Shown: positions 30,001-33,000 of the stretch, piece after piece
Layout of the letters: the number at the start of each line of letters is the position of its first letter
Numbering within the stretch: the stretch's first letter is position 1
NCBI GenBank assembly: GCA_038869755.1
Contig: JAWCQN010000007.1
Span: forward strand, 1-35,262
Reading direction: 5' to 3'
DNA length: 35,262 bases
From: Candidatus Pacearchaeota archaeon
GTDB taxonomy: Archaea > Nanobdellota > Nanobdellia > Pacearchaeales > GW2011-AR1
Position numbers: made by a program

Positions 30001-33000
30001 ATATTTGGTACCAATAAGTGCAAAATATAAGATTAACGAATCTGACAATAAAAATGTGTTCAGTATAGACTTTGGATCAGATGGAGAGATGCCTGATAGG
30101 ATTATTGTTAATCCTTCTTTGAGAATTATATATGTTTCAAACAACAGGCGCATACAAGAGGCCGAACTTATTAGGGATGCTTATAAAAGAGCTTTTGGAT
30201 TAGAGTACCATATAGATTATCAAGTGCAATACCATTAAGTCCCTTTATTATTTTTGAAGGGCTTTTCTCTGTATTCTCTCTGTTTTTACAGGTTTTACTT
30301 TAGCAATATGTTTCTGCTCTTTGGCTTTTATTTCAGCCTGTTTTTCCATTGCTTCTGCAACAGCTACTTCTTTCTCTTTTTCATCCGTCTTTTCTTGCTT
30401 TATTTCTTCCTCTCTTTTTTCTTCAGCCTTTTCTTTTATCTCCTCTTCTGCCTTTTTTTCAGCCTCCTTCCTCTCTTTTTTTGATTTTTCAGCTATTTCT
30501 TTCGTTCTTTCCTCTCTTAATTTTTTATATTTAAGCTTATCTGGAAGATTAGATAAACTTACTGTTACTATATCATTAGATTTTTTCGCTTTTACTTTTA
30601 TTTTTGTTGGAGGATTTTGGATACCCCTAAACCACATTTCCTCATTTAAGTATTTATCAAGCTTAACTTTTTTTAAGTCCCTGTCAGGAATTCTCATGTG
30701 TTTGGCAATAAATTGTTTTATAGCTTTAATAGCTTTTGGAGTTCTCCTGTACTTTGGGACTTTGAGTATTTCACGTCTTAAATTAATGACATATTCTCTT
30801 TCATTTGCAGATATTTTATGTTTTTTTGCCATTTTATTTTCCGTTTTCAAGTATGTACTCTATTGTTTTGTTTATAGAATTAATTATTTCCTCGTTATTA
30901 CTTCCAATTACTATTGAAGGAGTGCCATGAATATTTGAGATAAGAATTAATGTTCCATATCCTTCATTTGTGCCAATACCATAAATTCCTCCACCATGAA
31001 TTACATTTCCTCCACAATATTTCTCAACTTTAAAATATTGGGCTATATTCTGGTCTTCTAGGTTACTTACTAAAGTGTTATAACTTTCTCTACTTATTTC
31101 TCTTTCCATTTTCATTTTATCCCAGATGTTTCTTTTTCATTCTTCTTGGTTTAATCTTTAGTTTAGTGATTCTCCAGTTTCGTCTTAATCTTGTTGTTGC
31201 AGAGGGGTGAATTCTTTTTCCAGTACCATACTTTCTAACAATAACCCAGAAAGGAGCCCACTTTGTGTGTTTACCTGCTTTTGCAAGTTTTATTTTCTTC
31301 TGCCTTTGTTTTTTTTCTACTACCATTATTTAATACTCTCCAAAAAAATTTTTCCTTTTTCCGTTAATTTTCGTCCTTTTGTTTTTCCCTCTTTTACTTT
31401 TTCTACAAATCCGGCTTTTTCAGCTTGTTGTAATATTACTCTGATAATTTTTCCAGATCCTTTCCTAAATTCTGCAGGTTTAACACCCCGGTTTTTTCTA
31501 CCTCCATATCTGACTTTTAGTCTGTTAACTCCCACAACTTTTTTGATATAAACCTGTTTTAGGATACTTGCAGCTCTTTTATACCAAAAATCCTCTTCAA
31601 ATGGGGGCCTTTCTCTTGCAACTGACGACTTCACATAAAAAGACCATTCTGGAGCTTCAAACTCGGGGATTTTTTTTAGTGCTTCAGCTAGTTTCCTGTT
31701 AAATTCTCTATGTTCTAAATCATATACCGGCATTTTTTTATTTTTTATACACCTCGCTTTGCAGCGATAGAACGATATAAATCGTTTAGTATGTTTTTTA
31801 TCTGTTAAATTAGATTTATAAATCTTTGGTCATCTCATGGCTTTTCGCCATTTTTTTATGAATATTGTAAAACCTAAAATTCTGTAAGTATAATTTTTTC
31901 CAAGTTCTTTAACAATTTCTTCAGCAGTATTTTTTATTTTTTTCTTGTCTCTTGTAAAACTCCTTAAAAGCACAATTTTTACATTTTGGCGGTTTTTAAA
32001 ATTAGTCCTTAAATTTTCAATTAAATTTTCATTCAGTCCGTTTTTTCCGATTTGTATTGTTGTTATTAATCTCATTTTTGATTTAAAATTTTAAATCCTC
32101 CTGTTGGAAGGGCATTTAAGATTTCGTCTAATGGAATTTCAAGCTTTATCGATATTTGTTCAGCGAATTTTTCTTTATTAATTTTTCCCGGAATTATGCA
32201 TATGGACCTTTCCTTATTTTTTTTGAATGGGACTGCCCTTATTTTGCCTTCCTGATTTGTTATGTAAAATTTAAGTTCAACTTTTTTTCTGTCAATTTCC
32301 CCGACTACTCCAAACGTTCCAGTTTTCATATTCTTATTTTTTATTACTTGTTCCATAAGGAAGGTATCTATATCTACTGATTTTTTTCCTTCTCTCCATG
32401 CTCTTGAAAAACATCCTGTAAATATAGCACACTCTTCAAGATCTTTTTCATTATACTTTTCTGATATAATTATTGAAAACGGGCTTCCCTGAGATTTAGT
32501 GTGCATTACCACATATTTTTCATTTGACATAAATTTTTTAACAAGTTCCTCATTTTGCTCGGCATTTTTTCCACCAACAACCAGATTATTATTAGAAGTA
32601 AAAAACCATCTGTATTTATGATACCACTTTTCTGTATTTTTTTTCTTATTAAAAGTGTTTAGAGTCATTATTTATCTTATAAATGGCTACTTTTAAGCTT
32701 ATCGTTCCTATTATAAAACTTAGTTGAGAAAAATTATTATCCTAAAGCCTCTAAAGAATTATCTATTTCATTGAAGATATCACCTGATGTTTCAAGATTT
32801 GAAAATTCTGAATCAGGTATGTTATCTATACCAGATCTCTCTTGTTGAGTTCCTGTTTCTTGCTGCGTTCCTGTACTTTCTTTATTTTTATTAAGTATAT
32901 AAAACCCAGTGATTAGTAAAGCTGCTATTAAGATTAATATTACAATTATCCAGACTTTTTTCATTCTGACATTACACTCCTGAATTCTTGTTTGAACTCT

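Follow-up and report, generated by a model that had tools for sequence, protein, structure and literature searches.

Archaea of the order Pacearchaeales retain the C-terminal half of aRqcH on its own and have lost the peptidyl-tRNA hydrolase Pth2, and it is this combination that is specific to the order. By analogy with yeast Jlp2, we propose that the C-half evolved independently into a Jlp2-like peptidyl-tRNA hydrolase or release factor and displaced Pth2, a reading that we place slightly above even odds (a probability of about 0.55). Since Pth2 is part of the archaeal core and is scored as essential in Sulfolobus, it is surprising in its own right that an order with hundreds of species has no Pth at all. 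If the proposal is true, it adds a third class of Pth and a minimal translation quality control that works without Pelota or tailing, and it raises the issue of whether RqcH and NEMF themselves release peptides. If the hydrolase reading is false, these cells live without any known peptidyl-tRNA recycling, which would be equally odd.

The precedent comes from yeast, where Jlp2, a solo NFACT-R protein, is reported to release peptides in vitro from tRNA bound to 60S and 80S, with only His44 essential for release (10.1101/2025.09.04.673968). The first-pass annotation had ascribed peptidyl-tRNA recycling in these cells to an unknown enzyme or route, possibly one that uses the kept NFACT-R stub; given this named, His-dependent precedent, the enzyme class is not wholly unknown. 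Recycling of peptidyl-tRNA by the kept NFACT-R piece is the best-supported reading, with the Jlp2 precedent and a pattern of reciprocal loss behind it. Searches of open-licence PMC and bioRxiv found no papers on Pth2 or Pelota loss in Pacearchaeota, or on split RqcH in DPANN.

The gene and its product

The window is the whole stretch of 35,262 nucleotides analysed here, from a Candidatus Pacearchaeota archaeon. The ORF first annotated at 32072..32668 is real, lies on the minus strand (a plus-strand reading is ruled out by nine stops) and encodes 198 amino acids, in which Pfam recognises only NFACT-R, at residues 18-122. The gene stands at the head of a minus-strand series in which it is followed by yhbY, rpS19e, rpL39e, an ORF of 93 amino acids and rpL31e:

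32072..32668, minus strand: solo C-half of aRqcH (NFACT-R plus NFACT-C), 198 aa, proposed by analogy as a Jlp2-like peptidyl-tRNA hydrolase; model pLDDT 94.5
32303..32617, minus strand: NFACT-R domain, residues 18-122; PF05670 (Pfam NFACT-R_1), E 9.6e-21
32501..32503, minus strand: codon of His56, invariant; counterpart of Jlp2 His44, CCDC25 His41 and B. subtilis RqcH His486
32552..32554, minus strand: codon of Asn39, invariant; counterpart of Jlp2 Asn27, 17 residues ahead of the His in both proteins
32081..32278, minus strand: NFACT-C domain, about residues 131-196; full-length structural match to the C-termini of NEMF and Rqc2
31830..32075, minus strand: YhbY (CRM domain), PF01985; its ATG overlaps the stop codon of the NFACT-R gene (ATGA)
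31326..31733, minus strand: ribosomal protein S19e (rpS19e), PF01090
31117..31326, minus strand: ribosomal protein L39e (rpL39e), PF00832
30834..31115, minus strand: 93-aa ORF inside the ribosomal run, without a Pfam match
30248..30850, minus strand: ribosomal protein L31e (rpL31e) with a charged tail, PF01198

A yhbY homologue is present in 44 of 46 loci of the NFACT-R gene in the order. Among the same 46 loci, the NFACT-R gene adjoins a homologue of a putative cysteinyl-tRNA synthetase (C12:2565-3929 in the window's own genome, G000) in 21 (within L046-L089), and a separate NUDIX hydrolase gene occurs in eight; in genus g2, a NUDIX hydrolase is fused to NFACT-R (L086:2466-3269). After the ribosomal run lies a small plus-strand ORF (29945-30238) without a Pfam match, like that at 30834-31115 on the minus strand. 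The usual archaeal order places aIF6 after rpL31e; in the window it is not found downstream of that gene.

The predicted structure aligns to human NEMF over 192 of its 198 residues (Z 20.4) and to yeast Rqc2 over 187 residues (Z 19.8). Since both alignments reach the C-termini of those proteins, the product consists of NFACT-R followed by NFACT-C, the latter an alpha/beta domain and not a coiled coil as in Jlp2 and CCDC25. The initial description of an aRqcH cut down to NFACT-R is therefore right as to the missing NFACT-N, but overlooked NFACT-C. The protein appears to be a direct descendant of the NEMF/Rqc2/RqcH family (archaeal aRqcH, arCOG01695), from which it differs in that no NFACT-N, pair of HhH motifs or coiled coil is found in the same chain, and it would thus be capable of neither tRNA-anticodon reading nor Ala tailing. 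It would do the same job as Pth2 (PF01981) and Pth (PF01195), the latter of which likewise uses a histidine, but is unrelated to them in sequence and fold: neither Pfam family matches the protein, and neither fold is among the matches of its model. A search for longer fused forms of the protein gave only two ordinary aRqcH matches (E 1e-15).

The C-half has been reduced to different degrees within the order. In a non-random sample of 49 homologues (the 30 top-scoring loci plus 19 picked by hand), NFACT-C is kept in 32 and missing in 17, and the shortest homologues are bare NFACT-R domains of 124-136 amino acids. The return-coil motif is found in none of these 49, versus 27 of 30 split C-halves outside the order. 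His56 is present in 120 of 120 database matches and in 94 of 94 loci (the single pattern miss, L059, does have the His). Together with G33, N39, S88 and G117 it is invariant over 58 rows, and all five residues are held even in the bare domains. In the DxxxH motif of RqcH, the Asp is replaced by Tyr52 in the window protein while the His is kept; the Asp occurs in 13 of the 49 homologues.

Jlp2 and CCDC25 share with the window protein an NFACT-R without NFACT-N, the same fold (CCDC25: Z 11.9, rmsd 2.0, 115 residues) and Gly-Lys, Asn and His at equal spacing, such that G21, K22, N27 and H44 of Jlp2 correspond to G33, K34, N39 and H56 in a by-eye match to the alignment in the PMC4075521 supplement. 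Unlike them, the window protein has no C-terminal coiled coil, the order forms carrying NFACT-C or nothing, and in profile comparisons its family scores far better against NEMF (E 1e-21) than against CCDC25 (E 0.003), which argues for an origin separate from Jlp2/CCDC25. The order protein would thus have arisen by convergence with Jlp2/CCDC25 and would be their analogue rather than their orthologue, and it would be the sole hydrolase of the cell, not a back-up.

His56 is aligned to NEMF and B. subtilis RqcH by tool alignment, and the residue is found as well in full-length or split archaeal forms from Pth2-positive genomes. Judged by this distribution among sequences, the His56 equivalent is ancestral in the family; being family-wide, it does not single out a hydrolase. 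The NFACT-R domain fused to ThiI (PF18297) belongs to the same domain family outside RqcH, but is without the conserved His and is joined to a PP-loop enzyme. Second, weak NFACT-R matches in five order genomes are frames of 317-371 amino acids below the cut-off, probably ThiI-type fusions.

Missing factors and the split of aRqcH

The absence of Pth2 and bacterial Pth, asserted earlier from fewer genomes, is borne out in larger samples. Pth2 (PF01981) was found in three of 201 order genomes at a completeness of at least 85%, versus 229 of 242 genomes of other Nanoarchaeia; all order genomes are bins, some of them single-contig, and two of the 242, G436 and G437, are unpublished, with no claim depending on either of them alone. 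Three single-contig order genomes (G033, G035 and G105) also lack Pth2. Bacterial Pth is absent from all 121 order genomes searched. Pelota, likewise, does not exceed the cut-off in any of 121, and one weak match is seen in 120 of them; all 18 weak matches examined bear GGQ and NIK and are aRF1. Outside the order, Pelota is present in 82 of 98 genomes (E 1e-40). NFACT_N is missing from all four order genomes tested here, and lineage-specific profiles of Pth2, Pelota and NFACT-N, run unfiltered against all six frames of G000, returned nothing (best Pth2 E = 2). The accompanying statement that ribosome rescue is lacking holds as far as the known factors go, and no further than their absence.

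By comparison, and in line with the first reading, NFACT-R persists in 199 of the 201 order genomes (in all 77 that are at least 90% complete) and in 198 of 242 genomes outside the order. With aRF1 found in 120 of 121 order genomes of a like sample, these counts indicate that core genes are recoverable from the order bins, and that NFACT-R is retained like an essential gene. No EF-1A or EF-2 match was found in the G000 assembly, so its own gaps prove little, and the case stands on the order-wide counts. The Fe-S domain of ABCE1 is also without a match in G000.

The three Pth2 copies found in the order are only 21-29% identical to each other and 26-42% identical to 12 Pth2 proteins of the class, which average 55% among themselves; vertical remnants are ruled out by these low identities, and from their sequences the copies look re-acquired or mis-binned. 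Two of these copies, divergent Pth2 genes in two order bins (L001:1498-1884 and L003:1477-1869), lie amid genes judged phage-like by eye (DHH, CCA/HD and RtcB-like), and viruses may possibly carry Pth2 into hosts that lack it.

The term 'stub', used for the short form without its N-half, fits its length, but the truncation is not order-specific, as the short form is class-wide and is one half of a gene that is split in most of the class. Outside the order, 147 of 150 NFACT-R proteins among the matches listed are in frames of less than 400 amino acids, and NFACT-N occurs in 122 of 147 genomes as separate frames, mostly of 300-460 amino acids, at other genomic places (for example, an N-half at L133:1477-2589 and a C-half at L008:1273-2037). 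The split point is the tip of the coiled coil, at which the four N-halves examined stop and the C-halves start. Five genomes were seen to carry aRqcH at full length. As judged from sequence, aRqcH is two unlinked genes in most Nanoarchaeia, the products of which would re-pair through the coil. Nanoarchaeum equitans NEQ438 (332 aa) is a comparable short nanoarchaeal NFACT protein; the supplement of PMC4075521 lists it under the full architecture, with the split unremarked in the portion available.

Outside the order, the two halves tend to disappear together. Among 147 genomes, 25 are without NFACT-N, of which 23 are also without NFACT-R, and none has the N-half without the C-half. The exceptions, with NFACT-R alone, are G268 (probably an assembly gap) and G284, a member of family f55; in a third, G215, the NFACT-N match is merely the coil of its C-half. 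Pelota is absent from 11 of 13 NFACT-R-negative versus five of 85 NFACT-R-positive genomes, and 42 of 44 NFACT-R-negative genomes keep Pth2. Fisher values on these associations are overstated, because kin are not independent. The paired losses of N- and C-half and of Pelota suggest that the C-half is normally lost along with rescue, except where Pth2 is gone. Genomes outside the order that lack both Pth2 and NFACT-R number two, versus 2.4 expected, so the non-order sample alone shows no mutual exclusion of the two.

Family f55 provides a second case. Pth2 is found in none of its ten genomes and NFACT-R in eight (four of four at a completeness of at least 90%), and neither NFACT-N nor Pelota exceeds the cut-off in the five genomes searched. 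In a tree of RpoB, RpoA, S12 and S7 (10 rows, with G303, G003, G006 and G208 dropped for lack of sequence), f55 is nested with five families that are without NFACT-R and with Pth2 (support 98/99, and 82 under a mixture model). An AU test did not reject the order and f55 as one clade (p 0.31), and in the NFACT-R tree, from which L059 and one duplicate were left out, f55 falls between the order and the rest. Its NFACT-R gene shares the position upstream of rpS19e seen in the order; no adjacent yhbY was found. Loss of Pth2 thus occurred on one or two occasions, with the C-half retained on each, and the evolutionary events in support are only one or two.

The f55 protein is a bare NFACT-R (Z 14.4 against CCDC25) fused to a conserved region of about 115 amino acids, seen in 31 proteins (for example, L139:1174-1893). 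This region has no Pfam match and no homologue in G000, and a search with the N-terminal part of the protein gave no usable match. Its modelled fold resembles the RNase H-like middle domain of eRF1, aRF1 and Balon (Z 7.1-8.4) and also ParM (Z 9.2), and a GG loop falls at the GGQ position in a weak hhalign alignment (E 0.026). The loop reads GGF or GGM, with no Gln directly after GG; two subgroups can be told apart, with Gln two places on in 13 of 27 rows and Lys instead in 14. That the fusion partner may be like a release-factor middle domain is a lead only.

A candidate hydrolase and its alternatives

In the mechanism we propose, the order C-half, having lost the coil that would pair with an N-half, would work alone. 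The pocket around His56 would take the CCA-peptide ester and hydrolyse it, the substrates being dropped-off peptidyl-tRNA, tRNA left in the large subunit, or both. This activity may have overlapped with that of Pth2, so that lineages kept one or the other. In Sulfolobus islandicus, pth2 and aRqcH are both scored essential, with Pelota unassigned (PMC6249222). From the status of pth2, a substitute is to be expected where Pth2 has been lost; from that of aRqcH, the full-length protein does not cover for Pth2 there, and the domain may have another vital job. The Jlp2 substrates reported are 60S- and 80S-bound, and an assay of free peptidyl-tRNA was not met in the portion of the preprint available (10.1101/2025.09.04.673968).

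The principal alternative is that the C-half is retained because it serves the large subunit in some non-hydrolytic way, be it by binding the A-site finger, by maturing the 50S together with YhbY or by recycling subunits in cells without ABCE1. No dedicated enzyme would then clear peptidyl-tRNA, which would be removed by aRF1, by spontaneous hydrolysis, through tRNA turnover or by a host. We consider this unlikely, though to be taken seriously. In B. subtilis, the NFACT-R of RqcH is reported to contact the A-site finger, and a D/W/H triple mutant loses 50S binding (10.1101/2020.09.03.281279), a non-catalytic role that counts against the hydrolase reading. The essential score of aRqcH beside Pth2 in S. 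islandicus, the coupling of the gene to yhbY and ribosomal genes, and the unmatched ABCE1 Fe-S domain of G000 point the same way. Nor need a dedicated enzyme be vital: a yeast strain without the four release activities Jlp2, Pth1, Pth2 and Vms1 is reported to be viable and to grow (10.1101/2025.09.04.673968), and Carsonella is listed without pth (PMC2175510). However, related families that are without Pelota and the N-half have lost the C-half as well and retain Pth2, which indicates that such a job is not vital for cells of this kind in general. In the order, moreover, the domain shrinks to 124 amino acids and loses the Asp but never the His, and a role with YhbY is at odds with the f55 gene, which is found without yhbY at its side.

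A different, unrecognised enzyme could instead have replaced Pth2, with NFACT-R retention the coincidence of one ancestral event. This is improbable, even though the set of candidates is narrower than the whole proteome, a single origin of the order and f55 is not rejected by the AU test, and the release-factor-like domain of f55 could itself catalyse in the rows that have Gln. That domain is without a homologue in G000 and has Lys for Gln in about half of its rows, and the other candidates fail. DTD2 (G000:C11:16037-16651, L119), the only Pth-fold enzyme found in G000, occurs in 69 of the 121 order genomes searched, and whole genera either have it or lack it (none of ten in g3, none of eight in f4); this patchiness, with its reported inactivity on acetyl substrates (N-acetyl-L-Phe-tRNA; PMC7857688), rules it out as a Pth2 substitute. 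YbaK/ProX-type proteins are not found in G000, and searches for acVLRF1/VLRF1 match only aRF1. Finally, it is very improbable that a Pth2 escapes detection through divergence or is systematically left unassembled. Every genome is indeed a bin, EF-1A and EF-2 are without matches in G000 and the genome search begins with a loose first look. Yet that search detects Pth2 in 229 of 242 relatives and picks up divergent copies in three order genomes, the unfiltered lineage profile is empty in G000, single-contig genomes lack the gene, and these bins yield aRF1 and NFACT-R at 99%.

Beyond the Jlp2-like role of the order C-half itself, we tentatively suggest, as a broader reading that may well fail in one of its parts, that bare NFACT-R is a third peptidyl-tRNA hydrolase class. 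It would be the sole tRNA-recycling and peptide-release rescue enzyme of the order and f55, freed by aRqcH fission and independent of Jlp2/CCDC25; it would have displaced Pth2 more than once, and would reveal a latent release activity in RqcH/NEMF NFACT-R generally. The Jlp2 preprint, which does not mention archaea in the portion available, closes with the question of whether NFACT-R domains that bear the His make up a new release-factor class (10.1101/2025.09.04.673968). The order is a natural experiment on that question, with the 124-residue form as the minimal protein, and the split aRqcH found naturally in Nanoarchaeia offers another means of dissecting RQC.

aRF1 inteins and EF-2

In a quick EF-2 tree (L160-L189), the order fell into three separate places, a hint that EF-2 may have been transferred or have paralogues within Nanoarchaeia; the tree was otherwise uninformative. 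In many order genomes, aRF1 carries an intein directly after the catalytic GGQ, for which a literature search for a published account gave nothing relevant. The aRF1 of G000 is without an intein. A long form of about 430 amino acids with LAGLIDADG is seen at L104:1487-3865, L105-L108, L112 and L113, and a mini-intein of about 135 amino acids at L109:1721-3214, L110 and L111; long aRF1 frames occur in f55 as well.
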